From NCBI GenBank assembly GCA_965208675.1, contig OZ242351.1, positions 2,048,001 through 2,112,000 of the forward strand: 64,000 bases of DNA. Reading direction: 5' to 3'. The DNA comes from Candidatus Poribacteria bacterium. GTDB taxonomy: Bacteria; Poribacteria; WGA-4E; PCPOR2b. A program made the position numbers and the translations under genes. The notes beneath the pieces are model-generated. The model saw only the letters and a list, made by a program, of their open reading frames with translations, was not told where the DNA came from and made no database searches. The stretch's first letter is position 1; each line of letters begins with the position of its first letter. Shown here piece after piece: positions 40,765-61,456 of the stretch.

Positions 40765-41049
40765 GTAGGTTGGGTAGAGCGGATTTGGTGATTCATGTGT
40801 AGTATTTTGTGGGCAATACCTACGTTGGGATTGATCGGATAATGTAATAGCGGAGCGAAATCCAATGTTTTTGGATATTACGGAGCGTTTGGTATATGTG
40901 AAGCAATACGGATAAAACTATCGCCTTCGCTATTCGCTCAGTTGATCGTTGGGTTTCGCTCTGCGTGTATTGACAACAGCATCATCAGGAATTCGTACCG
41001 TTAATGCTTGTGTGAATCGTTTTGGGATTATCCGCTCTACCCAACCTAC
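40765..41049. repeat. Inverted pair of split-REP cassettes, each with a different 72-nt insert
   Basis: 40765-40781 arm, 40782-40853 insert, 40854-40865 arm; 40948-40960 arm, 40961-41032 insert, 41033-41049 arm. Confidence 0.85.
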
Positions 41050-41200
41050 AAGAGTTCGGTTGCGAATGAGGGTCGCGATTCGGGAATTGGTTCTACAAGA
41101 TACAGTTAGATTAGGATTGAGATACAGGCAAGTTATGCCCAAATATTTATGCACAATTTTATCTGAAAATTTGATATAATATTGGGTTAAGCCCGATGGT

Positions 41201-41236
41201 AAGGGGCAGTCTACTGCAGATTGCCCCTTCGTTTTT
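41201..41236 (+). terminator. Intrinsic terminator-like hairpin just upstream of the NHL gene
   Basis: AAGGGGCAGTCT-ACTGC-AGATTGCCCCTT followed by CGTTTTT. Confidence 0.5.
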
Positions 41237-41263
41237 GATATCTGATGCATTTTTTATGGGAGA

Positions 41264-42217
41264 ATGATAATGGACCAATCAACATCGAACCGCGGCGCCG
41301 AGGTTGAAATTGAGGGCAGCGGCGGGTTTAGATACGAGGTCGCCCAAGATTGGGAACAGTTGCCGCAAGGATTACGCTTCGGCGAAGTGGCTGGCGTAGC
41401 GGTAGACTCAAACGACCGCGTTTATGTTTTCCACCGCAGCGAGACTCCGGTTGTAATCTTCGAGCGCGACGGCACTTTTGTGAACTCTTGGGGCGAGGGC
41501 GACTTCGCTCGACCGCACGGCATATTTATTGGACCTGACGATTCAGTGTATCTTACCGATGATTTCGACCACACGGTCCGGAAGTTTACGACGGACGGCG
41601 AGCTCCTCTTGACGTTGGGCGTGAGCGGTGAATGCCCGGATACCGGCGTAATAAACATGGATCCCGGCACGGTTGTCCGCGCGGGACCGCCCTTTAATTT
41701 GCCAACGAATTTAGGTCTTTCCCAGAATGGCGACATGTACATCTCAGATGGGTATGGCAATGCCCGCGTCCACAAATTTTCGGCGGACGGCGAACTCCTT
41801 TTATCGTGGGGAGAACCCGGCACTGGGCCCGGGCAGTTTATTCTCCCGCACGGCGTTGCTCTGGACCGGAATGACAAAGTGTACGTCGCGGATCGGTCGA
41901 ACAATCGAATCCAAGTCTTCACGGCTGGCGGCGAGTATCTGACCGAATGGACGGATACAGAATCTCCGTGTCAGCTATTCATTGACGCCGATGACTATGC
42001 TTACGTAGCGGAATTGCCCGGCCGAGTCAGTATTTTTGATCTCAACGGCGCACTCCAAGCACGGTGGGGTACCGGCAGTGGGGCGGACATACCGGGTGAT
42101 TTGCAGGGCGCCCACGGCATATACGTTGATGCGCATGGCGACTTGTACGTGGGAGAAGTCGGTTTACTGCCAGAATCGCCGAATCGACATCATTTGCAGA
42201 AGTTTATCCGAATTTGA
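41264..42217 (+). CDS. NHL-repeat beta-propeller (PAL-like family)
   Basis: F.RPHGI, YISDGYGNARVHKF, GQFILPHGVA, VYVADRSNNRIQVF. Confidence 0.9.
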   Translation: MIMDQSTSNRGAEVEIEGSGGFRYEVAQDWEQLPQGLRFGEVAGVAVDSNDRVYVFHRSETPVVIFERDGTFVNSWGEGDFARPHGIFIGPDDSVYLTDDFDHTVRKFTTDGELLLTLGVSGECPDTGVINMDPGTVVRAGPPFNLPTNLGLSQNGDMYISDGYGNARVHKFSADGELLLSWGEPGTGPGQFILPHGVALDRNDKVYVADRSNNRIQVFTAGGEYLTEWTDTESPCQLFIDADDYAYVAELPGRVSIFDLNGALQARWGTGSGADIPGDLQGAHGIYVDAHGDLYVGEVGLLPESPNRHHLQKFIRI

Positions 42218-42237
42218 TAGTGACATGAATATTTTGT

Positions 42238-42272
42238 CCTTCGGAAGGCATTCTGCCTTCCGAAGGTTCCAC
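42238..42272. repeat. Perfect 13-bp-stem palindrome (terminator or GTGG-led REP)
   Basis: CCTTCGGAAGGCA-TTC-TGCCTTCCGAAGG followed by TTCCAC. Confidence 0.6.
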
Positions 42273-42327
42273 ACTTAAGCACGCCGTATTCACCACAATC
42301 AGATTTACCTGAAAAACCAGAGGCGAC

Positions 42328-43158
42328 ATGAGAACGTACGATTGCGAACCGACGTTAAATGACTTACAAGTTTTGGAATTCTGCCATAACGGTTATTTGA
42401 TGCTAGAAGGCGTTGTTCCAGACGAAATTAACAAAAGAACTACCCAGTTTCTTGAAGAACACACAGGAGAGACGTTCGGCAAAATTGTGGATGAAGACTG
42501 GTTTGTGGACAATGTGCTCACCAATCCACAAGCGGCGGGTGCGGTGCGGTCACTGCTCGGCAAGGATTTCTCTCTGACGATGCCTTATATGGCAAATCAT
42601 CAAGCCGAGGGACCGGGACCAGCGCAAGGCTGGCACCGGGACGGCGGTTCTGTATATAGCCACGAACTCGATTCGCTTCAAGTTTTCTACTATCCGCAAG
42701 ATACGCCCTTAGCAATGGGGCCAACTGAAGTAGTGCCGGGCTCCCATTTTCTTTTTGCCTTACAAGGCTTTATGCATCACTACACAGGTATCCGAGATGC
42801 GGTTTCTACCGCGGCGCCGGCTGGATCCATCTTCCTTACCGTTTATTCAATATGGCACCGTCGCGGCGCGTCCACCCTCGGCGGTACCCGCAACTTGCTC
42901 AAATACTGGTACATGCGGACTTCACCTCCGGAACGGGACTGGATAATCGACCCGGAATTTGACTTAGAGCACGCCTATCACGTCCCCGTCAAAAACACCT
43001 TCAACCGAGAAGGGCATCGAGCGCGCAATGACGCCGCGGAGATGTTTTATTGGTTGTGCGGGAGAAAGAGCGAATACCGCGCACGAAGCAACAATCTGCC
43101 CGTGTATTACTATGAAAAGCGAAAGCTCTGTAAATATTGCGGATACCGCGTGCGGTAG
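42328..43158 (+). CDS. PhyH-family dioxygenase with C-terminal CxxC
   Basis: QGWHRD, YYPQDTP...GPTEVVPGSH, SIWHRR, tail KLCKYCGYR. Confidence 0.88.
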   Translation: MRTYDCEPTLNDLQVLEFCHNGYLMLEGVVPDEINKRTTQFLEEHTGETFGKIVDEDWFVDNVLTNPQAAGAVRSLLGKDFSLTMPYMANHQAEGPGPAQGWHRDGGSVYSHELDSLQVFYYPQDTPLAMGPTEVVPGSHFLFALQGFMHHYTGIRDAVSTAAPAGSIFLTVYSIWHRRGASTLGGTRNLLKYWYMRTSPPERDWIIDPEFDLEHAYHVPVKNTFNREGHRARNDAAEMFYWLCGRKSEYRARSNNLPVYYYEKRKLCKYCGYRVR

Positions 43159-43188
43159 ACATGCCAAATGTGGAGATAAGACACAGTT

Positions 43189-43983
43189 ATGAGAACTTAC
43201 GATTGCGCGCCTACGTTGACTGACTCGCAAGTGTTGGATTTTTGCCGTGCGGGCTTTTTGATGCTTGAAGGCGTTGTTCCGGACGAGATTAACACAAGGG
43301 CATTCGATTATCTGGACGAGCATCCCGAACATACGCCGCTCCAAATTTTGGAGGAGGACTGGTTTGTCGACAATGTCATCCTTAATCCAGACGCGGCTGG
43401 TGCGATTCGGTCGGTGTTGGGCAAGAATTTTGCGTTGACCATGCCTTACATGGCAAATCACCGCGTGCAATGTCCGGAGACCGCACAGGGATGGCATCGG
43501 GACAAAGGCTCGGTGTTTACTCATGGGCTGGATTCGCTGCAGGTGTTTTACTATCCACAGGATACGCCTCTGGAGCTTGGCCCGACGGAAATCATACCGG
43601 GGTCGCATTTTCGGTACGCCGATGGAAGCGCTATGAGCCACTACGGCAGCATTCGAAATTCGGTGTCAACTGCGGCGCCTGCCGGCTCGATCTTCCTCAC
43701 TGTCTATTCGATATGGCACCGGCGCACTATGTCCACGGCGAGCGGGACGCGGAACCTGTTGAAGTATTGGTACATGCGGACGGTTCCACCAGAGCGAGAT
43801 TGGATTATGGAGCCGGAGTTTGAACTCGAGCACGCCTATCATGTTTCGATTTCTGACACGGCGGAGATGTTCTATTGGCTTTGCGGGCGGCACAGTGAGT
43901 TCCGTGCGCGGCGTAACAATTTGCCCGCCTACTACTACGAGGCGAGGAAGCTGTGTAAGTATTGCGGATATCGCATTGGGTAG
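43189..43983 (+). CDS. PhyH-family dioxygenase with C-terminal CxxC, tandem paralog
   Basis: Highly similar to 42328-43158, with a short deletion near the C-terminus. Confidence 0.88.
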   Translation: MRTYDCAPTLTDSQVLDFCRAGFLMLEGVVPDEINTRAFDYLDEHPEHTPLQILEEDWFVDNVILNPDAAGAIRSVLGKNFALTMPYMANHRVQCPETAQGWHRDKGSVFTHGLDSLQVFYYPQDTPLELGPTEIIPGSHFRYADGSAMSHYGSIRNSVSTAAPAGSIFLTVYSIWHRRTMSTASGTRNLLKYWYMRTVPPERDWIMEPEFELEHAYHVSISDTAEMFYWLCGRHSEFRARRNNLPAYYYEARKLCKYCGYRIG

Positions 43984-44031
43984 ATAAACGGCACAAATGG
44001 GGCAATTAATTGGTTAGATTCTAATTGCTCT

Positions 44032-46401
44032 TTAACGTGCGCCGTAGGTGTTCTGTTCTGATGGAGGGCGCGCCGGTTGGTACAGGTCGAAATCGGCGGT
44101 GTTGAAATCCCCGTCGGCGGGCAAAAGGAAGTAGACCATTCCCGGCACGGTCGCAAATTCCAAAATTGGATTAGTAAACGACTGGACGAATTCTCCTGAA
44201 GAATCGCACAACTTCGCGGGGCTCGCATAAGGGTTCACAATACGGCACCTCCCACCAACTGTGCTTTCGACGCTCACGAATTTGACCTGACCCGCTTTCA
44301 GGCACGAGGAGACCAGAAACGCACCTTCCGTCCGCAGCCGGTAAAAAGCGACATCCTCCCACGCTTTTGGCAGCGCCGGAAAGACGCGGATAATCCCGCC
44401 CCAACTCTGGAGCAGCATCTCCATAATTACCGCAGGCATTCCGAGACTCGGTTCCAACGGCACGCCTTCCGCTGCTTTGCCCCGTTCGTACGGCGCATTG
44501 GTGGCGAGACCAACCGGCGTAACATAGTTCTCATAGGCTTTAAGCGCTTCGACACACTTATCACCTTTTCCAACCCGCGCATAAATCATCGCTAGGTATA
44601 CGTAGGACCAACACTGCCAGTCAGTTACAAATCCGTGGGATTCAACCTGTGCAAGGCTCTGATCGATGAGATAATTCTCTTCGGTTTCGCCGTCAATCGA
44701 AATTTGGTGCATCGGATAAATCGGAAACAGGTGCGTCATATGTCGGTGCGGACGGTCTAGCGGTTGCCCGCTCCAGATGTGAAGCCCATCCGTCCCGTGC
44801 GGGAAGGGTGCGAGATTTGACAGAACATCCCGCCAGCGTTCGGCATCCGGATCGTCGCTTTTGAGAATACCCACCGATTCAAGAAGAGATTCCGTTAGAA
44901 AGCGGATGAGCGCCAAATCTGCGGAGGCGTCAGGTCCCCAAGGAACCCCATTTTCGGGGATGAATTCTGGCGAACATGACCACGGGAGATGCCACAGTCC
45001 ATCGCCGCCTCGTTCAAGCATGCCGAGATAGGTCTTCATGAACTCGCGCATAATCGGGTAGGCGCGTTCCCGCAGAAATTTTTCGTCGAGCGAATAGCGG
45101 TAGCGCAGCCAAAAGAAATGACACACCCATGCACCGCAACCGGGCCAATAGGTGGTGCTAGCATCGCCCATTAGGCTGATTGTCCCGTCCGCGCCAAGCG
45201 CGCCGCCCAGCCACGGCCCTTCCCAGCCGAACTCCCTGCCGCGCCGGCAGAATTCGGGGAGGAGTTTCCAACTCCATTCGCAGAGCGCGTCTAACATCTC
45301 AAGTCGATTCGAGGTGTAGATGGGCCAATAGTACATCGGCAAATCAAAGTGAGGCCGCCCAGCGCCAACCACCATGTCCGTATCCGGCGTCCAGGGCGCC
45401 AGAAGTCCCATGGGCCAATGCTTTTCGGGATTTGAAGCTGAACCGAGCTGGTAGATTCCTAAATGGTAGAGGCTTTCGAGTTGGCAATCCGGTATGGAGA
45501 TAAAAGAACGCGACCAGTATGCACTCCACCATGCGGTATGTGCGTCCAAAAGCGATGCAACGCCCTCCTGTTTTGCTTCTCGGAGCACGGCTCTGGCACG
45601 CAGGTCAGGATTGGGCGCCTCCGCGGAACTTGCCAAAGTTATGTAGAAGACACAACGAGTCGAGGCTGGACGGTCGGTTATACCGCGGACATAGAACTCC
45701 TGCCCGTTCAACATCGCCTGTTTCCAACCCCATTCCCGTCCGCCAAGGTCGAGTTCAGCGGGAGGATACGCTACGGGCTGCTCGGGACCTGCCGCCCGAA
45801 CATCGCCAGGCATACCGCTGAAGCGGAACTGCCCCAATTCCACCTCAGCCGGGTGACAGGCAACTGATGGAGAGAATGTATGCGCATTCGTTTCTATAGT
45901 GATTACAATCACATTTCTTTGCGGCGGGATGAAGGCTGACAGGTTGAGATTCTGTTTTCCTGAAACCATCTGGGCTATTGCCTGCGCGCGACTTAACTGA
46001 AGCCGTCCTCGAAAATCCGTCGGCGTAGAACCGAGGTCAATTTCGATTCGGCCTACCGGCGGATGGTAAACGAGCTGCCAGCTCTTGGAGAAAACTCCTT
46101 CTGTGTCCTTCCACCGTCCAGATTCTAAGCCCGCAACAAGGGTACTCCAATGGAAGTCCGGGTGGATAACTCTAGTCTGCGGGGCGGTTTCGAAAAGGTC
46201 GAGCTTGTCAAGCGAAATGTTCAGTCGTTCCCGTTCAAACCAGAGTACGGCGCCAATGTCGCCGTTGGCGAGTAGCATTCCCTCGTCCCAGATTTCGGGT
46301 GCACGTTCATACAGGAGATGGTGCTGCCTTAACCATCTGTCCATGTCTGGCGATGCTATAGATTTAGGTTGAGATGGCTGCGGATGATCTTCGAATGTCA
46401 C
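44032..46401 (-). CDS. GH95-like (alpha-L-fucosidase-type) glycoside hydrolase
   Basis: WDEGMLLANG.IGA, AH.AWW..YW.RS, SPE, HRHMTHLFPIYP, EMLLQSW...IRVFPALP.AW, LRTEGAFLVS. Confidence 0.82.
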   Translation of the reverse strand: MTFEDHPQPSQPKSIASPDMDRWLRQHHLLYERAPEIWDEGMLLANGDIGAVLWFERERLNISLDKLDLFETAPQTRVIHPDFHWSTLVAGLESGRWKDTEGVFSKSWQLVYHPPVGRIEIDLGSTPTDFRGRLQLSRAQAIAQMVSGKQNLNLSAFIPPQRNVIVITIETNAHTFSPSVACHPAEVELGQFRFSGMPGDVRAAGPEQPVAYPPAELDLGGREWGWKQAMLNGQEFYVRGITDRPASTRCVFYITLASSAEAPNPDLRARAVLREAKQEGVASLLDAHTAWWSAYWSRSFISIPDCQLESLYHLGIYQLGSASNPEKHWPMGLLAPWTPDTDMVVGAGRPHFDLPMYYWPIYTSNRLEMLDALCEWSWKLLPEFCRRGREFGWEGPWLGGALGADGTISLMGDASTTYWPGCGAWVCHFFWLRYRYSLDEKFLRERAYPIMREFMKTYLGMLERGGDGLWHLPWSCSPEFIPENGVPWGPDASADLALIRFLTESLLESVGILKSDDPDAERWRDVLSNLAPFPHGTDGLHIWSGQPLDRPHRHMTHLFPIYPMHQISIDGETEENYLIDQSLAQVESHGFVTDWQCWSYVYLAMIYARVGKGDKCVEALKAYENYVTPVGLATNAPYERGKAAEGVPLEPSLGMPAVIMEMLLQSWGGIIRVFPALPKAWEDVAFYRLRTEGAFLVSSCLKAGQVKFVSVESTVGGRCRIVNPYASPAKLCDSSGEFVQSFTNPILEFATVPGMVYFLLPADGDFNTADFDLYQPARPPSEQNTYGAR

Positions 46402-46527
46402 TGTAAGGTTAATTCAAGCTTAAGTGTAGGGGTGCGGTGCTAACATTTAGTCTTGGGTTTCTATATGAACTGTTACTGCCTCGGATGGCTGTTTATTCCG
46501 GCAAATTTTTGTGCCAGAATATCGATC

Positions 46528-46556
46528 TTGACAGCGGTTAACGGGTCGGCTATGAT
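46528..46556 (+). promoter_or_regulatory. sigma70-type promoter facing the tandem repeats and tricorn gene
   Basis: TTGACA-17 nt-TATGAT. Confidence 0.6.
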
Positions 46557-46647
46557 ATTCGCGAATTGTCCGCTCATTTCTGCATTGAAAAGAGAATAAC
46601 ACCCCTCCACCCAATTGTCTAGAGATTTTTGGCATACTTCATCCGAT

Positions 46648-47211
46648 CTGTGATTTTTGTGATTGAACGATGGGCTATGATTGTGTGAGCACATAATGAT
46701 TCGGTGTTGAAGCGTAGGCGGATTGGCTGCCGCTTACAACAACTAGGACTTCGCCAATTGGTGTTTGGGACAGTGTTCGTGTTGGGTAATCATTTGGGAT
46801 GGGAGAGGTTTTAAAAGCGTTGGGTTTCGCTCCATTCATCGGAATTTGCACGCGGTGAGGTTGACGAAGCGATTCGTGTTGATGGGCGGTTTTTGCCTGA
46901 ATCCGCTCTACCCAACCTACAAGAACTGTCTGAACTGTGATTTTTGTGATTGAACGATGGGCTATGATTGTGGGAGCACATAATGATTCGGTGTTGAAGC
47001 GTAGGCGGATTGGCTACCGCTTACAACAACTAGGACTTCGCCAATTGGTGTTTGGGACAGTGTTCGTGTTGGGTAATCATTTGGGATGGGAGAGGTTTTA
47101 AAAGCGTTGGGTTTCGCTCCAGCCATCGGAGTTTGCACGCGGTAAGGTTGATGGGGCGACTCGTGTTGATGGGCGGTTTTTGGCTGAATCCGCTCTACCC
47201 AACCTACAAGA
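46648..47211. repeat. Two tandem direct repeats with a 287-bp period, each ending in a split-REP cassette
   Basis: 46648-46924 vs 46935-47211 are near-identical; mismatches cluster in the 72-nt inserts (46832-46903, 47119-47190). Confidence 0.92.
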
Positions 47212-47311
47212 GCAACAAAAGCGGTGGTCGTGATTCGGAGATTGGTCCTACAGCTGATAACAGTTCGACAGATTATTGAGAGATAACTTGTTGATTTAGA
47301 AAGGAACCCGC

Positions 47312-50300
47312 ATGGCCAATTTGAGCCATCCTTATTTGACGTTGTTATCAACCCTCTACACCGCCGGAAACCGTAATGGAGACAGGTCCGAAACCGCTCA
47401 TTTCCCGTATATGTGCCAACCGAGCGTTTCGCCGAGCGGGAACGAAATCGCATTTTGCTATGCCGGTGACGTGTGGATAGTATCTGCAGAAGGCGGGCAG
47501 GCTAGGCGGGTTACGTCTCACCCAAGCCACGATTCACATCCCATTTTCTCACCGGATGGGAGCGAATTGGCGTTTGCCTCTCAGCGCACAGGAGAGGGAA
47601 ATATTTACGTCATCTCGCTAAACTCAAGCGAGCCACCGAGGCGTTTGACATATCACAGCGCATCAGTTCCGCCTGCATGTTGGTCGCCTGACGGAAATTG
47701 GATCTATTTTGCCTCAATGTACGATGGCATCTGCGGCGCGATTTACAAGATATCGGTTGATGGCGGCACGCCAATCCGCATTGCCGGCGACCCTATGGAA
47801 TCCCACTATAACGCAGCTATTTCCCCGGACGGAGGTAGGTTAGCGTTTAACAACAACGGACACGCGTGGTGGCGGCGGGGGCCTAATCCGGCGGGACATT
47901 CCGACATTTGGACGGTGGAGGTTTGTGGAACAGGCTATAAACGGTTAACGCAGTACCTCGGCAAGAATCTGAACCCCATGTGGAACGCGGACGGGGATGG
48001 GGTCTATTATCTCAGCGACCGCAGCGGCCAGGAAAATATCTGGTGTATGCGCTTGGACGGAGACGGAAGCGCCGAGCAAATTACGCATTTTACCGACGGA
48101 CGTGTGTTGCGCCCATCAATCTCCGCGGACAGCGAATGGATTGCGTTTGAGCGCGGCTTTCAGCTCTGGCGGTTAAATCTCAGTAATCGAGAGTGCGATC
48201 CAATAGACATCACTGTGTACACCGACGAAAAATCTAACCCTGTGACGCATCGAACTTACACGGGGGACATCGTCGAATTCCAACTTTCACCGGACGGGAA
48301 AAAGGCTGCGTTCATTGTCCACGGAGACGTTTTTGCGGATCTCGCCGATAAGGGTGAGAAAGTAAAAAAAGGAGGGGATTCATTTAAGGTCACGGATACG
48401 CCCGCCCGTGAGAGTCAGTTGCGCTGGCACCCTGAGAGTAATCGGGTTGTTTATGTGTCGGATTGGTTGGGGAACAACCAAATCTTCGCGTACGATTTTG
48501 TAGCGCATGTAGAGACGCAACTCACCCATTCACCAGAGCAGAAATTCGCGCCGAAATATTCGCCGGATGGCAAAACGCTCGCCTACATGCAGAGCAATAC
48601 CGAAATTTGGTTGATGGACACCGAAACACTCGAAAGCCGCCCCTTCATCACAAATCAGGTATTCGTCAATGTGCCCATACCGGCAGACTTCGGCTGGTCC
48701 CCTGATAGCAAATGGCTTGCGTTTATCGCTCAAGACCAGAATTTCTTTAGCAACCTCTACGTCCAACATGTCGAAGACAGCACGCCGAAACAGACTACTT
48801 TCTTGAGCAACGTCCGTGCTTACAACACGCTTTGGTCGCCCGACGGAAAATTCATCATATTCAATACGGGACAGTACCGGACAGAAAACCAGATTGCGCG
48901 GGTAGACCTTAAGCCGATCCAGCCAATATTCAAGGAAGAGGTTTTTGATAAGCTTTTTGAAGCAGAAAAGGATAACGCTAGCGAAGAAGAAAGACCGGAG
49001 ACTGGCGCCAAACAATCCGAAAATGGCAAGGCATCCGATAAAGAAAACGATACGGACAAAGCGCAAATCGAACCGGTCGAGATTTCTTTTGAGTCTATCA
49101 AGCACCGGCTTCGCTTCCTCACGGATGCTAAACTAAACGCGGCGGCGTTGCGTATTCACCCTGACAGTAAAACCCTAATCTTCCGCGCTGTCATGAATGG
49201 CCATCCCAATCTCTGGAGTATGTTTCTTGAGGATGAAAAGCTGGGTGAACTTCCAAAGCAGCTAACTTCAACTGCAACCGGTAAAGGTAATGTCCATGTC
49301 ATGCCAGATGGCAAAAGAATCTATTACAACGACGGCGGTCGAATTCATACACTTGGGCTTAGTGAAGACGGCGGTAAAGAAGGTGATTCAAGAGTAATTG
49401 AAACTATAGCAGAGGTTGAAATCGATTTTCACCTTCAGAAAATGCAATCATTCAATGAAGCGTGGCGGCTGATACGGGATAGTTTCTACGATTCGCAATT
49501 TCACGGCTGCGATTGGGAGGAGCTGTTGGGGCAATTTCGACCGATTATTCAGGGCGTCCAAACGCAAACGGATTTCCGTGAAGTTTTGAATCTTATGGTC
49601 GGCGAACTGAACGCCTCGCACCTTGGCGCACGGGGCGGTAACGCGAATACATCTGACAGCCACCTCGGTGCGGATTTCGATCAGGAGGCATTGGAGGGCC
49701 GCGGGCATTTCAAAATCACCCATCTCCTACCGGAATCGCCATTGACCCTGCCGAGAGAGCCCGCCGGAGTTGGCGATTATCTGCTCGCGGTGGACGGCGT
49801 CGGACTCAACGGGCAGGTCAATCTCGCCAAGCTACTCCAGCGAAAAAGCGGTAAACGCGTTGGGGTAAAACTCAACGACAAACCGGAACTCGCGGGCGCA
49901 CGCGATCTAACCGTTCAGCCGATTGACGCAAGCCGATACGCCGATCTTCGTTATAAAAATTGGGTGCGATGCAATGGCGCATATGTCAATGAAAAGAGCA
50001 ACGGCCGGCTCGGATACGTCCATATCCCCGCGATGTCCTATGAGGCCTACCTCCAATTCACCGCCGATCTCGATGCCGAAACGCACAACAAAGCGGGCGT
50101 CATCATAGATGTCCGGTTCAACCCTGGCGGACACATCGCACCGTTCATCCTGGACGTGCTGTACCGAAAAGCGTATACGAGTTCAAGTTACCGCGGGCGA
50201 ATCGCCACACCGGACACGCACTTGGCCGGGAGCCGCATCCTTGACAAGCCCCTTATACTGATTGTCAATGAGCATTCGGCAAGCAACGCGGAGATGTTCA

Positions 50301-53598: not shown

Positions 53599-53743
53599 AA
53601 TTTTTCTTCGATTGCCAATTCGGGGAGGCAGCAGCCCCCAAACATGTGATAATGTCTGATAGTTTTTGACGGAATTTTAACGATGACGTGTAGTGATTCG
53701 ATGGGTATAGCTTAACGAATAATGGTGCTCGTTGATTTGCGCA

Positions 53744-53772
53744 ATCCTACACCAGATTATGATGGAAGTCAA
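53744..53772 (-). promoter_or_regulatory. Divergent sigma70 promoter for the PhyH-isomerase-AKR genes
   Basis: Minus strand TTGACT-17 nt-TAGGAT. Confidence 0.5.
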
Positions 53773-53820
53773 GAAAATTGTGATTGCTTTACCGCAGATT
53801 TTACGTACCGCCATTTGTTA

Positions 53821-53848
53821 TTGACACAGATTTGAAAACCGTTATAAT
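53821..53848 (+). promoter_or_regulatory. Consensus sigma70 promoter for the membrane protein gene
   Basis: TTGACA-16 nt-TATAAT. Confidence 0.7.
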
Positions 53849-53953
53849 CAGTACATTGCGGGCTGTGCAATTGCACCGACGTTCGGATCCCGGAAAGCAC
53901 CGTAACGGCGAAACTGCGAAAATCTACCTTCCTTCAATCCAACTCCTCCAATT

Positions 53954-55882
53954 ATGAGAACATCTCCTCAATCCAAATCCGCCGCCTCGACCGGTGTTAC
54001 GCCGCGTGCGGTTGTCATCGGGCTGATCTTGGTTGTCTTAAACGCCTACTGGCTGAATCATGTAATCTGGCGCGGGTTATTGCACACCTACATGTCACTG
54101 TTCGCCAATACGGTCTTCAGCCTATTTGTGGTTGTGGTGCTATTCCATCTTCTATTGAAACGAATCCTGCCCCGGTACGCGTTGCACAATACGGAGGTTC
54201 TCGTTATTTATGTAATGGTGCTTATGGTTTCGACGGTGGGCGGCAACACAAACATGGGCTATCTCGTCTATATCCTGGCGCACCCGTTTTGGTTTGCCGA
54301 CGCGGAAAACGACTGGAACCAGCTGTTTGGCGGGTACATCCCTCAATGGTTTAACGTTCGGGAAAGGTCAGTTCTAAAAGGGTTTTTTGAGGGAGATTCG
54401 ATTTTCCTAACTGCCACTCATATCTACAACTGGCTGGTGCCGTTTCTCGTCTGGTCGGCTTTTGTGTTTGTGCTCTACTTCGTGTTAATTTGCATAAATG
54501 CCGTCCTGCGACGGCAGTTCTCGGAACATGAACGGTTGAGTTTTCCCATCGCCCGGCTGCCGCTGGAGATAGGGAAGAATCCGGAGGGGTTTTTCAAGAA
54601 CAGACTGATGTGGATTGGATTCAGCGCGGCTGGCGGAATCGAGATCCTCAACGGCGTAAGCTACCTGTATCCTTCCTTTCCGTATATTCCAATCAAACCG
54701 TGGGACAACATCCACCTGTTCCCCGACGAGCCGTGGGACGCGCTTGGGACGATGCTGCTGTCTTTCAATCCGTTCATCATCGGCCTCACCTTTTTCATGC
54801 CGCTGGACCTGTCATTCTCCGCACTGTTCTTTTTCGCTCTCGGGAAAGCGTTACTCTTGGGGCGACGCGTTTTGGGCTGGCACACCGGATTCTACCTTGA
54901 TGAACAGGCGCAGGGAGCTTGGATCGGCTTGGGTATTCTCGCCTTATGGGTGGGGCGAAGGCATTTGAAAGGCGTGTTCAAGCACGCGGTTGGAAAGGCG
55001 CGAACTGCCGATGATGTAGCCGAACCCATGCGGTACAAATGGGCGATTTACGGGATTGTTGCCGGGCTCATTTTTATCGCTCTATTTGCCTGCCATGCGG
55101 GCATTTCGCTCTGGGCGGCGCTAATCTTTTTTGGCTGTTACTTCCTGATGGCTGTCGGATTAACGAAGGTACGGGCAGGACTCGGTCCGCCGCTGCACGA
55201 AACCATCGGGAAAGACCCTGCGAGTACGATGGTCGCGGCGCTAGGCACACGCACGATTGGCGCGCGGAATTTAACGTTGCTCTCCTTTTTTTTCTGGATG
55301 AACCGCGTCAACACGGCGCACCCGATGCCCAACCAGCTCGAAGCCTTTCACATCGGACGCCAAGGCGGCATCGACAATCGAAAGCTGCTTTCGGCGATGC
55401 TCCTCGCGCTCGCGGTCGGCATTCCGTGGACGTTTCTCGTATATCTGGGCATGGCTTATGATATCGGCGGCGGTGCCGCGTTTCATACAGTCGGAATCGG
55501 TTGGCAGAACTTTAGGTTGTTAGAAAGCCGACTGAGCAACCCGACGGAGGTGGACAGCTTCGCAATGATTGCTATGGGCACGGGATTCGGTGTGACGACG
55601 TTGCTGTCTGCGTTGAAGCTAAGGTTTCTGTGGTGGCCTCTGCATCCCATTGGCTACGTAATAGGGACGGGCAATTGGGGCGACATGTCGTTCATCTGGC
55701 TTCCGGTACTATTCACTTGGGTGGTCAAGTCCTTGCTGTTGACGCACGGCGGTTTGCGGGTATACCGGAGCGCAATACCGTTTTTTGCGGGACTCATTCT
55801 CGGCGATTTTGTTGTGGGCGGTATGTGGAGTCTTGCCGGTATTGCGTTCAACACGCCGACGTATGCCATCTGGACGCGGTAA
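53954..55882 (+). CDS. Polytopic membrane protein, DUF6785/DUF6784-like, paralog of 3378-5303
   Basis: RRQF..HERLSFPI, PLDLSFS, VRAGLGPP, HPMPNQLE, WWPLHPIGY, GGLRVYR.AIPFF.GLILG. Confidence 0.75.
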   Translation: MRTSPQSKSAASTGVTPRAVVIGLILVVLNAYWLNHVIWRGLLHTYMSLFANTVFSLFVVVVLFHLLLKRILPRYALHNTEVLVIYVMVLMVSTVGGNTNMGYLVYILAHPFWFADAENDWNQLFGGYIPQWFNVRERSVLKGFFEGDSIFLTATHIYNWLVPFLVWSAFVFVLYFVLICINAVLRRQFSEHERLSFPIARLPLEIGKNPEGFFKNRLMWIGFSAAGGIEILNGVSYLYPSFPYIPIKPWDNIHLFPDEPWDALGTMLLSFNPFIIGLTFFMPLDLSFSALFFFALGKALLLGRRVLGWHTGFYLDEQAQGAWIGLGILALWVGRRHLKGVFKHAVGKARTADDVAEPMRYKWAIYGIVAGLIFIALFACHAGISLWAALIFFGCYFLMAVGLTKVRAGLGPPLHETIGKDPASTMVAALGTRTIGARNLTLLSFFFWMNRVNTAHPMPNQLEAFHIGRQGGIDNRKLLSAMLLALAVGIPWTFLVYLGMAYDIGGGAAFHTVGIGWQNFRLLESRLSNPTEVDSFAMIAMGTGFGVTTLLSALKLRFLWWPLHPIGYVIGTGNWGDMSFIWLPVLFTWVVKSLLLTHGGLRVYRSAIPFFAGLILGDFVVGGMWSLAGIAFNTPTYAIWTR

Positions 55883-56091
55883 AGTAGGATTAATTCCCAC
55901 AACTGAAGCGTCCAGAGCGCGCCAAAATCTTGTTGCGTTCATTTTTATGCTGTGATAGGATAGTGCAACGTCCGATTTGGGCAAGCTATCGATTTAGCAA
56001 TCATCCGAGCGGTTAGCGAGAGCATTAGTGTTCAAGTCTTTACCTGATTTAGCAGCTCACACCCCCTTTTGACTCTACGAAGGAGAACAAT

Positions 56092-57138
56092 ATGCACTAC
56101 ACCCTTGAAATGCGCGGAAGGTACATACAGGGGCCGGGGGCAATTCATGAGATAGGACGGTTCACCGCGGGATTGGGGGATAAAACCCTCCTCATGGGTG
56201 GGCCCACGGCGTTGTCACTAACTCAGGTTGCGATATCCGACAGTCTGAAAGAACATAATGTTGACACCGTTGTGAACCGGTTCCGAGGAACACACAACGA
56301 CGATGAGATTGAGCGGTTGGCGAAGATTGCGGATGAATCCGGCGCCAACGTCGTCATCGGGATTGGCGGCGGCCAAGCGTTGGACACCTCAAAAGGCATA
56401 TCCCACAGCAGAGGACTTCCGCTGGTACAGGTACCGACAGTCGCGTCAACAGATGCGCCTTGCGCGGGCGGTCCGCTTCTAGTCATCGCCGATACGGAGA
56501 TTATCGTAAAGAGTCCTCCGCGATACACGGTTGCCGGAATGGGTGACGCGCTCTCCACGCCGTTCGAGGCGGAGGCATGCATCAAATCGTCCGCGCCGAA
56601 TTTCCGAGAGGGGCGCGCCACAGAATTAGCGTACGCAGCGGCGAAATTGTGCTATGACATCGTTATGGAACACGGGATAGAGGCGAAGCGCTGTAACGAA
56701 GAGGGGCGCTTGTCCGAGGCGTTCGAAAAAATCGTTGAAGCAAACACGCTCTTGAGCGGGGTGGGATACGAAAACTGCGGACTATCTATCGCGCACGGGC
56801 TATGGAACGGATTTAAGCTTGTCGACGGCTTCCGGGAAAGCGGCACACTGCACGGCGAGGCGGTCGCTTGGTTCACGCTTGTCCAATTGGTTCTTGAAGG
56901 ACGTTCTGACGAATTTATTGATGACATGCTCGCCTTCTACAATGCCGTCGATCTTCCGGTCGCCCTAGACGATAGCCGGCTGGTGAACGTTAGCCGAGAC
57001 ATGATTGACGCCGGCGTGGAATTCACGATGGAGCCGGGCAGCTCAATATATTATACACCGCTATCGCTAGATGCAAATACGGTTCACGACGCAATCCGCC
57101 AAACGGACGCCATCGGGCGCGCTTCCAGAAACAGTTGA
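56092..57138 (+). CDS. gldA: Glycerol dehydrogenase family
   Basis: YIQGPGA, GIGGG.ALDTSK, PTVASTDAPC, AGMGDALST.FEA, EANTLLSG.G.E..GL..AH, HGE.VA. Confidence 0.8.
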   Translation: MHYTLEMRGRYIQGPGAIHEIGRFTAGLGDKTLLMGGPTALSLTQVAISDSLKEHNVDTVVNRFRGTHNDDEIERLAKIADESGANVVIGIGGGQALDTSKGISHSRGLPLVQVPTVASTDAPCAGGPLLVIADTEIIVKSPPRYTVAGMGDALSTPFEAEACIKSSAPNFREGRATELAYAAAKLCYDIVMEHGIEAKRCNEEGRLSEAFEKIVEANTLLSGVGYENCGLSIAHGLWNGFKLVDGFRESGTLHGEAVAWFTLVQLVLEGRSDEFIDDMLAFYNAVDLPVALDDSRLVNVSRDMIDAGVEFTMEPGSSIYYTPLSLDANTVHDAIRQTDAIGRASRNS

Positions 57139-57431
57139 CCGCGGCATTCACCGGAAACAACAGCCTGAAGCCTGTCTAAATGATTGACGAAAATTTAACA
57201 TGTGCGAAGTAGATTGTTCATGCTTTCGAGCATTTTGCGGGGCAAGATGCGCCGCCTACAGGCCGTGACGGCACACCCGAGGCAAGGAAGATCTCTATCG
57301 TACACCCTATTCAATTGCTTCATCCCCGCCTAGGGAGGGTAGTGTGGTATTATACACCTGCCGTCCCGCTGGGGCTGTATAAAATGAATTTTCAAACAGG
57401 TTTAAAATGAACGCGCTATACTAGTGAAAGG

Positions 57432-58421
57432 GTGAATATGATTCTTGAAATACTGGTTGCAGCGTTTGTGTTGGTGCTCATCTCGACATCCGTGAGTCAC
57501 GCGGCTTCTATTATTGTCGCAGCTTCAAATTCTTCGACCGAATCAAAAGACCGCGCAGACTTCATCTGTGACGGCACGAACGACCAGGTTAAGCTGCTAG
57601 AGTCCATAACCCGTGCGAACCGCGTCACGACTAAAGTAGACACCGCCCCTGCGGTTCAAAAGAGCGTGGAGTGTTATGGCAGGCATTCGGTTGAATGGGT
57701 ACCCGGAGACTACTATTTAGGAGAGACGCTAACTATCCCCGACGCCGCGGATGTTTCCATTCAGGCGGAGGGAACATACTTTCATTACATACCCAAGGAA
57801 GGCGATGCGGTCGTTGTCACTGGAATGAACCGGTGCCGATACTACTTTGGGACAATCGAGTCCAATTCCAGCGGGACAGCAATCCTAGTGAAACCCACCG
57901 CAGAGATGCCGGCGCTCATGAGTTTTCTGAACTTTACCGGCTTGCTTGGAAGCGAACAGCGCGGAACAGGGCTATACCTCAATTCTACCCAGTCGGGCGT
58001 CTGCTGCAACCGGTTTGAAGGCACCGACATTATGGGCTTCGATACCGGCGTGTTCGTCAGCGATGCAATCGCAAAATGTGATACGAATTGGTTCTGGTTC
58101 AGCTACATCCGGATGTGCAACACCGGTATCCAAGAACTCGGAAAGGGCGTCGATGACAATGTCTGGAACGTAAATGTCGACGCTAGCATCCCCGATTCCC
58201 TTTCGCTCCGCACCGCGGCGACGCACGGGAAATGGTACGTTATCATGGGCACTTGGACTTTCGAAGGCGTCAACAAAGCGGTAATCCTCGATCCGGGTGC
58301 AAGCCAAAACGTAATCGAAGTCCATCCGCCGCTGGAGGATTTCGCTTGGGAGGACAACAGCGGCAACGAAACAAACATCATTCTTACGGCAAAGAAGTAT
58401 CTCAACGCCCAATGCTGTTAG
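57432..58421 (+). CDS. Secreted hypothetical protein, probable right-handed beta-helix (pectin-lyase-like)
   Basis: Signal peptide; IVAASNS....K..ADFICDGTNDQV, PG.YYL; Asn/Gly-rich beta repeats. Confidence 0.55.
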   Translation: MNMILEILVAAFVLVLISTSVSHAASIIVAASNSSTESKDRADFICDGTNDQVKLLESITRANRVTTKVDTAPAVQKSVECYGRHSVEWVPGDYYLGETLTIPDAADVSIQAEGTYFHYIPKEGDAVVVTGMNRCRYYFGTIESNSSGTAILVKPTAEMPALMSFLNFTGLLGSEQRGTGLYLNSTQSGVCCNRFEGTDIMGFDTGVFVSDAIAKCDTNWFWFSYIRMCNTGIQELGKGVDDNVWNVNVDASIPDSLSLRTAATHGKWYVIMGTWTFEGVNKAVILDPGASQNVIEVHPPLEDFAWEDNSGNETNIILTAKKYLNAQCC

Positions 58422-58475
58422 TGCGCACCATGTGTAATGAATAAGCCCTAACGCTATGAAAGGGAGGGACAAATA

Positions 58476-59273
58476 TTGAAAACGTTAGTTTCGACTTTTT
58501 TGATGACGGTTCTAGCTACGGCGTTTTATGTTCCAGAAGCCGATGCAGCCCTCGACGAAGATATTGTACTCGCCATGTCATTTGATGAAGGCAAAGGCGA
58601 AACCACGAAAGATCTCTCTGCACACGCTAACCACGGCACCCTCATGCAGAACGCAGGATGGGCAAAGGGTAAATTTGGCAACGGCATAATCGTTGAACCG
58701 GTTGGCTATGTAGATGCCGGAAACGATCCAAGTCTGAGTCTGTCCAAAACAGATTTCACGCTTGCCGCGTGGGTCCACATGAAAGACACCGTCGTCCACC
58801 AACACGGGTTCATGGGGCACGATGAAGGCGGCGGGACAACGAACAAATGGATATTTCGATACAATAAAGGCGGCAGTCAGAGCATCAATTTTCATATCAA
58901 TAGAGCCGACGGTGCAGGCGTTAATCAACTTGAACCCGGTGTTTGGAAAACAAAACCCAATACATGGTATCAGGCCGCTGTGGTTCGATCCGGGAACAAG
59001 TATACGTTTTACACCGACGGCACAAGGAATGGGCAGATAGAGAGCGATGTGGCCGTCCCAAAATTCATCGACGCCCCAGTCACGATCGGTTGGGCAGAAG
59101 GCCCCATTGCGCTCGACGGCCGTATTGACGAAGCCCTAATCGCTAAGCGAGCCTTCACCGCCGATGAAATTAAATCGCACTTCCAAGGCGGCGTCAAACA
59201 GGTGTTGGCGGTCCAGCCCGTAGGCAAAGCCGCTTCCATCTGGGGCACCATCAAGACGCGGACATTGCGTTAG
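58476..59273 (+). CDS. Secreted LamG/concanavalin-like protein with AVQPxGKxAxxWGxIK tail
   Basis: FDEG.G...D.S...NHG, GKFG, FT.A.W, G.IDE; tail LAVQPVGKAASIWGTIK. Confidence 0.88.
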   Translation: MKTLVSTFLMTVLATAFYVPEADAALDEDIVLAMSFDEGKGETTKDLSAHANHGTLMQNAGWAKGKFGNGIIVEPVGYVDAGNDPSLSLSKTDFTLAAWVHMKDTVVHQHGFMGHDEGGGTTNKWIFRYNKGGSQSINFHINRADGAGVNQLEPGVWKTKPNTWYQAAVVRSGNKYTFYTDGTRNGQIESDVAVPKFIDAPVTIGWAEGPIALDGRIDEALIAKRAFTADEIKSHFQGGVKQVLAVQPVGKAASIWGTIKTRTLR

Positions 59274-59310
59274 ATCTCCGATGAAAGCCTTTTTCGGGTA
59301 GAGACAGCCT

Positions 59311-60108
59311 ATGAAAGCAGTGGTTTCGGCTACTCTGATTACCGCATTGTGCGGCGCCTTCTGCACTGGATATGCTCAAGCAGCCGGCATCGGCGACATC
59401 GTGCTTGCCATGCCGTTTGATGAAGGCGAAGGAGAGGTCACGATGGACATCTCCCCTCACCGGAACCACGGCACGCTCATGGAAAATGCGGGTTGGGGAA
59501 TTGGCAAATTTGGCAACGCTCTACAGGTCGAACCAGTTGGTTATGTGGATGCCGGCACTGATCCAAGTCTGAGTCTGTTTGACACAGACTTCACGCTTGC
59601 CGTTTGGGTCAACATGAAGGAAACTGTCGCCCACCAACACGGGTTCATGGCTCAGGATGAAGGCGGCGGGCCGGAGAACAACAAATGGATGCTGCGATAC
59701 AATAAAGGCGGGGTTCGGAGCGTCAACTTCCACATCCATAGAGCCGACGGCGGTTCTATGCAGCTTGAACCCGGCTTTTGGCGAGCCAAGCCCGAAACAT
59801 GGTATCAGGTCGCCGTGGTTAGATTCGGAAACAAGTACACGTTTTACAGCGACGGGAAACGGGCTCTGGCGTTAGAGAGCGATCTGGCTGTTGCAAAATT
59901 CATTGACGCACCGGTAACAATTGGTTGGGCAGAGGGCCCAATTGCGACGGACGGACTTATTGACGAGGCTTTGATTGTGAAGCGGGCTTTTACCCCCGAT
60001 GAAATAAAAACGCATTTTGAAGGGGGAGTTCACGACGTGTTGGCAGTTCAGCCACAAGGCAAATCTGCTGCAGTCTGGGGCAAAATCAAGGCGCAAATGT
60101 TACGCTGA
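59311..60108 (+). CDS. Secreted LamG protein, tandem paralog 2
   Basis: Homologous to 58476; tail LAVQPQGKSAAVWGKIK. Confidence 0.88.
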   Translation: MKAVVSATLITALCGAFCTGYAQAAGIGDIVLAMPFDEGEGEVTMDISPHRNHGTLMENAGWGIGKFGNALQVEPVGYVDAGTDPSLSLFDTDFTLAVWVNMKETVAHQHGFMAQDEGGGPENNKWMLRYNKGGVRSVNFHIHRADGGSMQLEPGFWRAKPETWYQVAVVRFGNKYTFYSDGKRALALESDLAVAKFIDAPVTIGWAEGPIATDGLIDEALIVKRAFTPDEIKTHFEGGVHDVLAVQPQGKSAAVWGKIKAQMLR

Positions 60109-60144
60109 GATTTCCCGCATTAATCCCATGAAGGAGGAATTCCA

Positions 60145-60945
60145 ATGAAAACCTTAATTTCGATTTTTGCGATTGCGGCTATAGCCGCCGTCTTTTGTGT
60201 TGGCGAGACAGCAGCGGCCGGCGGAGATGAAGACATTGTGCTCGCCATGCCTTTTGAAGAAGGTGAAGGCAATTCCACCATGGACATCTCTCCCCACGGT
60301 AACCACGGTACGCTTATGGACAACGCGAGTTGGGGTGCAGGTAAATTTGGTAACGCCGTACAGTTTGAACCGGTCGGCTATGTGAATGCCGGAAATGATG
60401 AAAGTTTGAGTCTGTCTGGCACAGACTTCACACTTGCTGTGTGGGTCAACATGACAGATACCGTCGGCCACCAACACGGGTTCATGGCTCAAGATGAAGG
60501 TGGCGGGCCGCGTAACAAATGGATTTTCCGGTACAATAGGGGCGCCAGCCAGAGTGTTAACATCCATATAAATACAGCCGACGGCGAGTCTATGCAGCTT
60601 GAACCCGGCCTATGGGATGTGCAGCCTAACACATGGCATCAGGTCGCCGTCGTTAGAGCGGGAAACGCGTACACGTTTTTCACCGATGGCGAGCAGAGCG
60701 CGCAGTTAGAGAACGACCTCGCCGTTCCGCCTGTTATCGACGCACCGGTCACTGTCGGTTGGGCGGAAGGTCCCATTGCTATGAGCGGCCTTATTGACGA
60801 AGCCCTAATCGCGAGGCGAGCCTTCACATCCGATGAAATCAAGATGCACTACGACGGCGGAGTGCAACAACTACTCGTCGCAGTTCAGCCCGCAGGCAAA
60901 TCTGCTGCCGTTTGGGGAAACATCAAGGCGAAGGCATCGCGCTGA
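60145..60945 (+). CDS. Secreted LamG protein, tandem paralog 3
   Basis: Homologous; tail VAVQPAGKSAAVWGNIK. Confidence 0.88.
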   Translation: MKTLISIFAIAAIAAVFCVGETAAAGGDEDIVLAMPFEEGEGNSTMDISPHGNHGTLMDNASWGAGKFGNAVQFEPVGYVNAGNDESLSLSGTDFTLAVWVNMTDTVGHQHGFMAQDEGGGPRNKWIFRYNRGASQSVNIHINTADGESMQLEPGLWDVQPNTWHQVAVVRAGNAYTFFTDGEQSAQLENDLAVPPVIDAPVTVGWAEGPIAMSGLIDEALIARRAFTSDEIKMHYDGGVQQLLVAVQPAGKSAAVWGNIKAKASR

Positions 60946-61046
60946 AAATCCCAACGGCAATCTTATAGGGGAGTTCTTGTAGGATCAACCGAGTGAATAA
61001 CGAGGGCGATAGTCTTCTCCCCGCATCAAATCCTCATCCTTTATAA

Positions 61047-61269
61047 GCTTTCTATTACCCACAAGTGTCTGGAGGTAGACGCCGTCTATGTTGGGACTAA
61101 CAACGATTGTTCATTTCGGTATGGTGTAAACTGTGGGAGGGACATCACTGTCCCGATAATCAGGACTAGGCAGCCCTTCCCACAGGCGCTTCACAGCATG
61201 GTAACGTCAAGAATGAGGGGAAAAACCCTTAAACTATTCGACCTTGCGGACTTGTGGGTAATAGTAAGC
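61047..61269. mobile_element. 223-bp MITE-like element with 19-bp terminal inverted repeats and 7-bp TSD
   Basis: Left GCTTTCTATTACCCACAAG and right CTTGTGGGTAATAGTAAGC (18/19 match); TTTATAA on both flanks (61040-61046, 61270-61276). Confidence 0.75.
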
Positions 61270-61354
61270 TTTATAAAGGGGAGCGAGAGGGGGGTTGCGT
61301 GCTTTCCGCCCGCGTTTTATCTGAAATCTAATCTGAATTTGCAATGTAGCTCTT

Positions 61355-61456
61355 GTAGGTTGGGTTGAGCGGTGTTAACGCACCAACGCATGTATGCCGC
61401 GTATGTTACGTGTTCTGGTTGCGTTCAAAATTTGAACTGATGAAGCGTAACCCAAC
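61355..61456 (+). repeat. Split-REP cassette with a 72-nt insert
   Basis: GTAGGTTGGGTTGAGCG (61355-61371), insert 61372-61443, AGCGTAACCCAAC (61444-61456). Confidence 0.85.

Follow-up and report, generated by a model that had tools for sequence, protein, structure and literature searches.

What holds the length of a sequence constant while the sequence itself changes? This question is raised by a 64,000-nt stretch of DNA from a Candidatus Poribacteria bacterium (G000:C1:2048001-2112000, hereafter the window; the source genome, G000, is one contig of 4.89 Mb with 49.2% G+C), in which two short conserved arms repeatedly enclose about 72 nt of variable DNA. We refer to the arms as A (or arm 1, GTAGGTTGGGTWRAGCG) and B (or arm 2, AGCGWAACCCAAC) and to the stretch between both as the interior or spacer. 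An earlier reading of this DNA, made from the sequence alone, had listed five such cassettes with 72-nt inserts and one with a 73-nt insert, and all six are present (Table 1). Most sequencing runs containing this DNA are labelled sponge metagenome, and named records with the same element mostly have Candidatus Poribacteria titles, both of which point to a sponge symbiont; none of the 23 runs listed is an RNA run. Our analysis reveals that the cassettes are a family of GTAG-footed repetitive extragenic palindromic (REP) elements with a giant, non-palindromic loop. With a probability that we put at about 0.75, they form one old REP-type family, linked via sister species to a REP-associated tyrosine transposase (RAYT); the spacers of this family have drifted at constant length, and its copies in G000 are an orphaned population.

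A GTAG-footed REP with a 72-nt loop

The arms are strongly over-represented in the window. Allowing at most 2 mismatches in arm 1 and at most 1 mismatch in arm 2, we find 11 matches to arm 1 (0.70 expected) and 8 matches to arm 2 (1.37 expected), and neither number is reached by any of 100 shuffled windows. Across G000, the string GTAGGTTGGGT is present at 270 sites against an expectation of about 1.2 per strand. A profile of the nhmmer type, built from 85 strict-arm copies and run across the whole of G000, returns 246 matches, 211 of them full length.

The complete unit is 102 nt long and consists of a GTAG foot, the stem halves GTTGGGT(T) and (A)ACCCAAC, a GC/GC step and the spacer of ~72 nt between them. 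The stem halves are located 84 nt apart in the main form (72 + 12 nt), and GTAG lies at the 5' foot of the stem, as it does in REPs of the GTAG type. The conserved region is wider than first stated, starting with AGYTYTT upstream of GTAG and ending with GCTTTT downstream of the B arm, and positions directly 5' of GTAG are part of it. GTAG REPs are 20-40 bp in length with loops of 2-20 nt according to the excerpted text of Di Nocera et al. 2013 (PMC3733652); the main form lies outside this size range, and only about 12 short forms in G000 fall within it. These short or 'empty' forms (A + 2-12 nt + B; 16 sites by script, ~12 on reading) are ordinary GTAG REP hairpins. They are also present in Desulfobacterota loci and may occur in cyanobacteria, and at the RAYT gene of one relative (G012) a short form adjoins a full unit. 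Therefore, the 72 nt sit exactly in the loop of a REP, and the description of the cassettes as REPs split by a spacer, given in the sequence-only reading, is borne out.

The elements are extragenic, as expected of high-copy intergenic REPs. The midpoint of only 2 of the 246 copies falls inside an open reading frame (ORF) of at least 200 aa, although such ORFs occupy 77.8% of the genome. Copies are present on both strands and in any gene context, with a mild shift and no strong preference among convergent, divergent and tandem gene gaps. No strand bias by replichore is evident (Fisher p 0.11, or 0.47 once clusters are collapsed), in a genome whose GC skew is weak and lopsided.

Spacer length is constrained

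Both arms could be parsed in 205 copies. The spacer measures 70-74 nt in 194 of these, 71-73 nt in 172 and exactly 72 nt, the modal value, in 99, which is the kind of sharp genome-wide peak that the sequence-only reading had set as its test. Outliers are few, at 61 (2 copies), 67 (2), 68 (2) and 69 nt (1), with single copies at 94, 102, 105 and 108 nt. For the 199 copies with a spacer of 66-78 nt, from which the interior statistics below are drawn, the mean is 71.98 nt and the standard deviation (sd) 1.13 nt. With strict arms there are 137 arm-1 sites with any downstream arm 2, of which 85 are at 70-74 nt (2, 13, 50, 14 and 6 copies, respectively), and 5 further arm-1 sites have an arm 2 within 400 nt. 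Length is thus constrained although the nearest dispersed relative of an interior is only ~75% identical at the median.

Origin of the interiors

The four insert types of the window look unrelated by eye, as had been reported, and their ungapped identity is 24-39%. As a population, however, the interiors are related. Pairs of interiors from different clusters (n=3691, ungapped) are 34.7% identical in register as against 23.1-28.4% at offsets of 1-12, and the excess in register is seen in every third of the interior (40.7% at positions 1-16, 32.5% at 17-56 and 34.2% at 57-72). The consensus sequences of 30 clusters are 36.4% identical in register, and weak interior consensus columns are retained across 47 copies from many assemblies. 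Average linkage yields 50 clusters, the largest with 22 members, and single linkage at 68% identity chains 161 of the 199 interiors, which are thus graded lineages and not unique sequences. There are three arm types, TAGAGCG with AGCGAAAC, TTGAGCG with AGCGTAAC and TTAAGCG with AGCGAAC. Each of these accompanies particular interior subfamilies and, therefore, arm and interior have been inherited together. These alignments suggest that the interiors are, to a large extent, descendants of one ~72-nt ancestor that have drifted apart. Of the two outcomes that had been named beforehand as fatal to a length-measuring system, a broad length distribution is not what we observe, whereas descent from one ancestor of ~72 nt largely is, and the length constraint is real all the same.

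It had been proposed that a RAYT-like enzyme takes up fixed-size pieces of single-stranded DNA (ssDNA) and places them in the REP loop, much like spacer acquisition. The coexistence of empty and filled REPs with the fill exactly in the loop, the sharp length and the many interior types that look unrelated by eye would all agree with such a process. However, the interiors are alike in register across subfamilies and genera, the arm type is inherited with the interior type and the subfamilies are graded lineages. Moreover, a search of the element-masked genome gave no significant match (E <= 1e-3) for 189 of the 199 interiors. The remaining 10, compared with 1 of 199 shuffled controls, have as their top matches another repeat module or copies of the family that had been missed. 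Two of the four window interior types gave no match in a phage search, and neither did one whole element of a third interior type in a plasmid search. Inserts of foreign or host-derived, unrelated sequence were not found in these searches, and we regard the capture of fixed-size fragments as largely refuted and highly improbable.

The other proposal was a guide-like structured RNA, that is, transcripts of ~100 nt closed by the terminal stem, with the variable interior as guide or regulator. The conserved length is in keeping with this, and so are the T-run GCTTTT after the B arm in most copies and the slightly better folding of the forward strand (-25.3 vs -22.5 kcal/mol with RNA parameters). 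However, Rfam 15 gives no match at gathering score in the window, and RNAalifold recovers only the terminal 7+2 pairs from 47 diverse copies (covariation term -0.04), with no interior consensus structure and no compensatory pair. Mutual information on the interior columns reveals no nested helices, only subfamily and neighbour effects. The mean minimum free energy is only ~1 sd below that of shuffles, the presence of copies on both strands and in any gene context does not favour a transcript, and the interiors evolve at or above the rate of their flanks (11.0% as against 8.1% at orthologous sites, see below). A family of small structured RNAs is, in our opinion, very unlikely.

Other kinds of content were also absent from the interior. 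No reading frame is kept open, the best frame being open in at most 36% of 191 copies. The left half of the interior pairs with the reverse complement of the right half no better (10.3) than in shuffles (9.9 +/- 2.1), so that self-pairing of a single unit, in the manner of REP doublets forming hairpins (REPINs), could be dismissed. The five window units folded as ssDNA give z values of 0.68, -0.15, -0.75, 0.08 and -2.76. Local hairpins inside the arms (AGCTCT...AGAGCG and AGCG...CGCT) were considered and discarded, as the sole variable pair gives C-A in 20 of 65 TAAGCG copies.

Doublets

Elements are frequently found next to one another. Among adjacent pairs within 150 nt, 55 are arranged tail to tail, 10 head to head and 11 in tandem, and tail-to-tail pairs comprise 110 of the 246 copies (~45%). 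The gaps of these pairs cluster at 40-45 nt between profile matches (28 of 55). The doublet at 40765-41049 of the window, the only one folded, reaches -46.2 kcal/mol as ssDNA compared with -27.7 +/- 3.5 kcal/mol for shuffles (z -5.25), and none of 200 shuffles is as good. Its fold contains A:A' and B:B' stems, with both spacers forming a facing unpaired bubble.

Elsewhere in G000, a tail-to-tail doublet (2327830-2328095) has as its counterpart in G002, a genome of the same genus, one unit ending in ...AACCCAACCTAC (332060-332220). This joint looks like the product of recombination, in which the B arm of one unit was joined to the inverted A arm of the following unit.

A likely RAYT partner is found in relatives

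In two further genomes of the genus, G001 and G003, a gene of 180 aa is embedded in clusters of the GTAGGTTGGGT family (the G001 copy is at L182 1357-1899, on the minus strand). The motifs PDHLHTIW and YIHYNPVKHG are readable in its ORF, and we take them to carry the catalytic HUH and Tyr residues. On the NCBIfam RAYT model NF047646 (curated cut-off 80 bits) the protein scores 201.6 bits, with a second score of 199.2 bits, and it aligns with E. coli TnpA-REP (PDB 4ER8), residues 2-165, at E 5.5e-40. Elements are located on both sides of the gene in all six orthologs that are at least 72% identical (G001, G003 and the further relatives G011, G012, G018 and G023). The last four are 72-73% identical, and in G011 and G012, the two whose sequence was read, the elements are within ~60 nt of the gene. 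A named Poribacteria metagenome-assembled genome (MAG) that had been fetched by the element pattern alone (L065) carries an ortholog of 67-69% identity ~85 nt downstream of an element cluster. None of 22 other Y1 loci examined has an exact family arm adjacent to it, though two (L178 and L191) carry look-alikes with 1 mismatch. Six more distant homologs (35-48% identity) show either a few arm matches near the edge of the locus (L201 and L204) or none (the other four).

The presence of elements around this RAYT in sister species makes it the likely partner. The RAYT link that the sequence-only reading had put forward is, therefore, supported through seven relatives, on the evidence of gene neighbourhoods.

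In G000 itself and in G002, searches with the protein query and the family model did not find the cognate RAYT, and the best matches are paralogs of 26-34% identity. Thus, the arrangement typical of REPIN-RAYT systems, a cognate RAYT flanked by elements in the same genome, is seen in the seven relatives and not in G000. There are four Y1 matches in G000, and each is flanked by its own, different REP family; the RAYT genes among them were rejected as partners for this reason. A distinct family at each of the four genes means that the genome holds at least five REP families.

Three of these Y1 genes, at G000:C1:3522656-3523069, 190475-190873 and 2029870-2030214, are two RAYTs over the cut-off (132.1 and 86.1 bits) and one IS200-like gene. 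The window contains a weak RAYT-like Y1 frame at 23896-24132 (+). It stays below the cut-off of NF047646, at 47.1 bits, and AAAGTAGTAGGCACACGGAGTGTGCC, a REP of its own, flanks it.

Another reading would make the cassettes ordinary miniature inverted-repeat transposable elements (MITEs), derived from a DDE transposon and bounded by short terminal inverted repeats. An intergenic location, a size of ~115 nt and inverted termini of 7-8 nt are what such elements would show. However, no constant-length autonomous parent with these ends was found, and the DprA-like and rve genes present in the two candidate stretches have nothing to do with the arms. The flanking hexamers are conserved but unlike each other within a copy, which by eye indicates no target duplication. 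Together with the GTAG foot and the RAYT flanked by elements in relatives, this makes a MITE origin extremely unlikely.

Distribution across genomes and phyla

A arms number 194 in G000, 67 in G001, 224 in G002 and 88 in G003, and 0-21 in other genera of the order. In five genomes from three other genera, scanned with a gap of 58-88 nt allowed, all 47 matches are at 69-77 nt. When named genomes were scanned with the gap set to 66-78 nt, at least 113 stretches were obtained, mostly with Candidatus Poribacteria titles and also from other MAGs; the non-Poribacteria titles among the stretches listed are Desulfobacterales, Desulfobulbia, Desulfobacteraceae, Deltaproteobacteria and Thermodesulfobacteriota. 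Among the matches listed from named genomes, 94 in 80 loci have spacers of 69-75 nt with the mode at 72 (36).

One Desulfobacterales MAG contains 384 A arms, which mostly belong to 128-nt palindromes of the form A-9-B'-51-B-8-A' (for example, L056 7236-7363). The distance from A to B in these palindromes is 73 nt despite the differently built interior. The same MAG has tandem arrays with a period of 195 nt (L101 4944-5462) and a RAYT of 47% identity that is flanked by a sister long-loop REP, GTAGGGTGGGTGGGTCG-65-GTCCAACCCACC (spacer counted by eye). The near-identical arms in the two phyla suggest that the system has been transferred between them. The four arm strings were absent from the microbial literature searched, REP catalogues in supplementary tables being outside that search, and no REP, RAYT or MITE paper mentioning Poribacteria was among the 10 best-ranked of 269 literature matches.

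The fact that the A-to-B spacing is 72-73 nt in two phyla whose interiors are organised differently (A-72-B as against A-9-B'-51-B-8-A') bears on a further possibility, namely that the ~72-nt spacer is a ruler read by a protein on ssDNA. One tetramer of single-stranded DNA-binding protein (SSB) wraps ~65 nt. The wrapping of the spacer around SSB could bring the stem halves together at entry and exit, or else a RAYT holding A and B could set the length; both are guesses. A RAYT clade common to Poribacteria and Desulfobacterales would then act on 'long-loop' REPs, outside the known loops of 2-20 nt. We consider such a ruler possible and rather unlikely.

A probably orphaned population turning over

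Near-identical interiors are almost all neighbours. There are 18 local pairs and 1 dispersed pair of at least 95% identity, and therefore recent copying has been local, as in the tandem 287-nt unit described below. For only 18 of the 199 interiors does a relative with 90% identity or more exist at a distance of over 10 kb. With 50 clusters, the largest of 22 members, and that single dispersed pair, no abundant master sequence is apparent.

G002 is ~93% identical to G000 in aligned blocks, and 1.2 Mb of it was compared with 73 G000 copies that had been chosen by their arms. For 16 of these an alignment spans both flanks. A dispersed relative with 90% identity or more exists for 1 of the 48 copies without a spanning alignment; these are therefore old copies that were lost or rearranged in one lineage and not fresh insertions. 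Three sites of the window were also examined in the other two genomes of the genus. All three are empty in G001, two are empty in G003, and the third is without an element in the stretch read there, which is part of the gap only. None of the sites looked at in G001-G003 is a clean empty site, the intergenic DNA being unalignable or rearranged.

At the 16 orthologous copies, divergence between G000 and G002 is 8.1% in the flanks (674/8351), 11.0% in the interior (126/1147), 5.9% in the B arm (12/205) and 2.2% in the A arm (6/272). This is a small sample, in which certain pairs have the appearance of replaced copies; in one of them, 23 changes in the interior accompany identical arms.

By analogy with TnpA-REP and REPINs, we propose that the RAYT would bind the GTAG foot and the A:B stem on ssDNA and would then copy or move the unit or a doublet. 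Only the arms and the spacer length would be needed for its action. As only copies with arms and spacing would stay competent, the spacers would drift in sequence with their length fixed. The copies of G000 would then be an orphaned population, turning over by deletion and local duplication.

Several points weigh against this account. The unit is without the long hairpin that defines REPINs and, to our knowledge, RAYT action on such a long-loop substrate has never been demonstrated. The loop greatly exceeds the 2-20 nt that the excerpts of PMC3733652 report for GTAG REPs. Our comparisons of filled and empty sites, all of which are untidy, show neither a transposition event nor a target duplication, nor any clean empty site, and most A arms are present in the two genomes without the RAYT (G000 and G002). 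A further difficulty comes from the orthologous copies, at which the A arm differs from the interior in divergence with a Fisher p of 6e-7. Even at half the interior rate, which allows for the arm-based picking of copies, 15 A-arm changes would be expected where 6 are found (Poisson p 0.008). An A arm conserved in genomes without the RAYT is not predicted by pure decay of an orphaned selfish element. Either the A arm is still under selection without its cognate RAYT or the sample misleads.

Selection of this kind would be in line with a DNA or RNA element kept by the host, as a site for a nucleoid protein or gyrase or as a stabiliser of 3' ends, and such a role would be compatible with a RAYT origin. 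A role as 3' end stabiliser has been proposed for E. coli REPs. The conserved A arm at orthologous sites of two RAYT-less genomes (2.2% vs 11.0% in the interior), the persistence of large populations without the RAYT and the strictly extragenic location are all consistent with it. However, retention at the same site is limited to 16 of 73 copies in a relative of ~93% identity, the three window sites examined are without elements in G001 and, as far as read, in G003, and the B arm is barely conserved (5.9% vs 8.1% in the flanks). The shift in orientation among gene gaps is only mild, and a simple terminator and promoter scan of 40500-47500 gives counts as in shuffles and calls no terminator or promoter on an element. 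Maintenance by the host is, therefore, an explanation to which we give little weight, and we continue to favour an old RAYT-linked family drifting at constant length.

Comparison with known REP systems

REPINs and RAYTs have been described by Bertels and Rainey 2011 (PMC3116915). In the parts of that study used here, as in the present family, conserved inverted ends enclose a spacer whose length is maintained while its sequence is lost. Inverted doublets are common in both (55 tail-to-tail pairs here), the one folded here gives a long hairpin that is closed by its arm stems alone, and the cognate RAYT gene is flanked by elements, in our case in relatives. REPIN populations decay after RAYT loss according to the abstracted text of a later study (bioRxiv 10.1101/2021.07.10.451892), and there, as here, populations outlive that loss. 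Unlike in REPINs, the 72-nt spacer is not self-complementary, the spacers of the doublet are unpaired and doublet partners are, by eye, of different subfamilies. Its inverted termini comprise no more than 7-8 nt plus GC/GC, an abundant master sequence is missing, and the cognate RAYT was not found in G000.

The family resembles the GTAG REPs of PMC3733652, as far as excerpted, in having GTAG at the 5' foot of an imperfect stem, in being extragenic and of high copy number, and in forming head-to-head and tail-to-tail dimers, including dimers of unlike units. It differs in the 84 nt between its stem halves and in its unit length of 102 nt. In the same excerpts the survey is stated to have discarded repeats with unusual loops, and long-loop forms would therefore have been missed.

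The alignment with 4ER8 described above places the associated protein close to the TnpA-REP that accompanies the REPs of E. coli. Bacterial interspersed mosaic elements (BIMEs) consist of REPs in alternating orientation, with linkers of set types between complete REP hairpins. The intergenic mosaic of REPs and other small modules in G000 is reminiscent of them; unlike in BIMEs, however, the spacer here lies inside one hairpin. A formal resemblance also exists to integron attC sites, whose core-site consensus is GTTRRRY and inverse core RYYYAAC, since GTTGGGT fits the former and ACCCAAC the latter. The order of the core sites is reversed here (GTTRRRY first and RYYYAAC last, on both strands) and the attC reading was set aside on this ground, no integrase link having been sought.

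REPs and REPINs have been thought of as short hairpins or as long hairpins with pairing spacers. All that the present family retains, over hundreds of copies and in two phyla, is a stem of 7-9 bp with a GTAG foot and the length of its spacer. In contrast to the published REP and REPIN picture, its spacer lies unpaired inside one REP hairpin, with a length common to both phyla, and this long-loop form is new within the known REP/REPIN-RAYT kind. The constant spacer length points to a so far unmeasured step of RAYT-REP biology in which length is sensed, and a series of substrates with varied spacer length could show what a RAYT recognises. Species with the RAYT (67 and 88 A arms) and without it (194 and 224) also offer a natural comparison of populations after loss of the transposase. 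For annotation, the family implies that repeat finders restricted to short loops will miss others like it.

Copies in the window and neighbouring modules

The elements of the window and the features next to them are collected in Table 1. Three lone arms had been reported at 11279, 18519 and 30677. The first two turn out to be parts of truncated copies, and at 30677 the B arm has a degenerate inverted A arm directly against it. The near-empty degenerate copy that had been noticed at 62482-62515 is indeed a short REP.

Table 1. Elements of the long-loop REP family and adjoining features in the window
Position	Strand	Feature	Details
11251..11297	-	Truncated element, A arm and ~30 nt of interior	Profile positions 2-48
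13213..13315	-	Decayed full element	73-nt interior (13226), 1-2 changes per arm; E 1.2e-8
18459..18538	-	Truncated element, A arm and ~63 nt of interior	Profile positions 1-80; cut off by another REP family
30675..30704	+	B arm, then degenerate inverted A arm directly	Arm and profile matches
40765..40866	+	Full element	A arm 40765-40781, interior 40782-40853 (72 nt), B arm 40854-40866, variant AGCGAAATCCAAT; nhmmer E 8.3e-11
40765-41049	+/-	Tail-to-tail doublet of the 40765 and 40948 elements	Adjacency of both full units
40914..40947	-	Unrelated ATCAAC...GCGATAGT module	Abuts B arm of the 40948 element
40948..41049	-	Full element, different subfamily from the 40765 copy	Insert 40961-41032, 72 nt; E 1.8e-18
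46819..46920	-	Full element within tandem 287-nt composite unit	Insert 46832, 72 nt; E 2.1e-22
47106..47207	-	Full element, second tandem unit	Insert 47119, 72 nt; E 5.9e-21
61355..61456	+	Full solitary element, T type (TTGAGCG ... AGCGTAAC)	Insert 61372, 72 nt; E 3.5e-17
62482..62515	+	Degenerate short ('empty') REP	No GTAG foot

The element at 40765 has an orthologous copy in G002, and its site is empty in G001 and G003. The G002 ortholog of the element at 61355 has 2 changes each in its B arm and its interior. The interior of the 47106 element is 88% identical to that of the 46819 element. An ORF of 3318 aa (30788-40744, +) ends 20 nt before the first element of the doublet.

The two tandem units at ~46630-47215 are copies of a 287-nt composite, in which an element is joined to a conserved tail of ~190 nt. 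The composite is present twice in G000 and four times in G002 and is absent from G001, and related composite units in G002 form arrays with a period of ~352 nt. In sponge metagenomes, a joint 47118>47190, skipping 71 nt, was considered as a sign of excision and is most readily explained by other copies that align through their arms alone.

A module of ~34 nt, ATCAACYGAsCGAATAGsGArGGCGATAGTCTTC, is very abundant genome-wide. It immediately follows the 'CG' of the A or the B arm or is located within empty REPs, and it is often accompanied by tandem half-units. Contigs from four sponge-metagenome runs break at the repeats of the region, including the edges of this module at 40914, 40917 and 40947.

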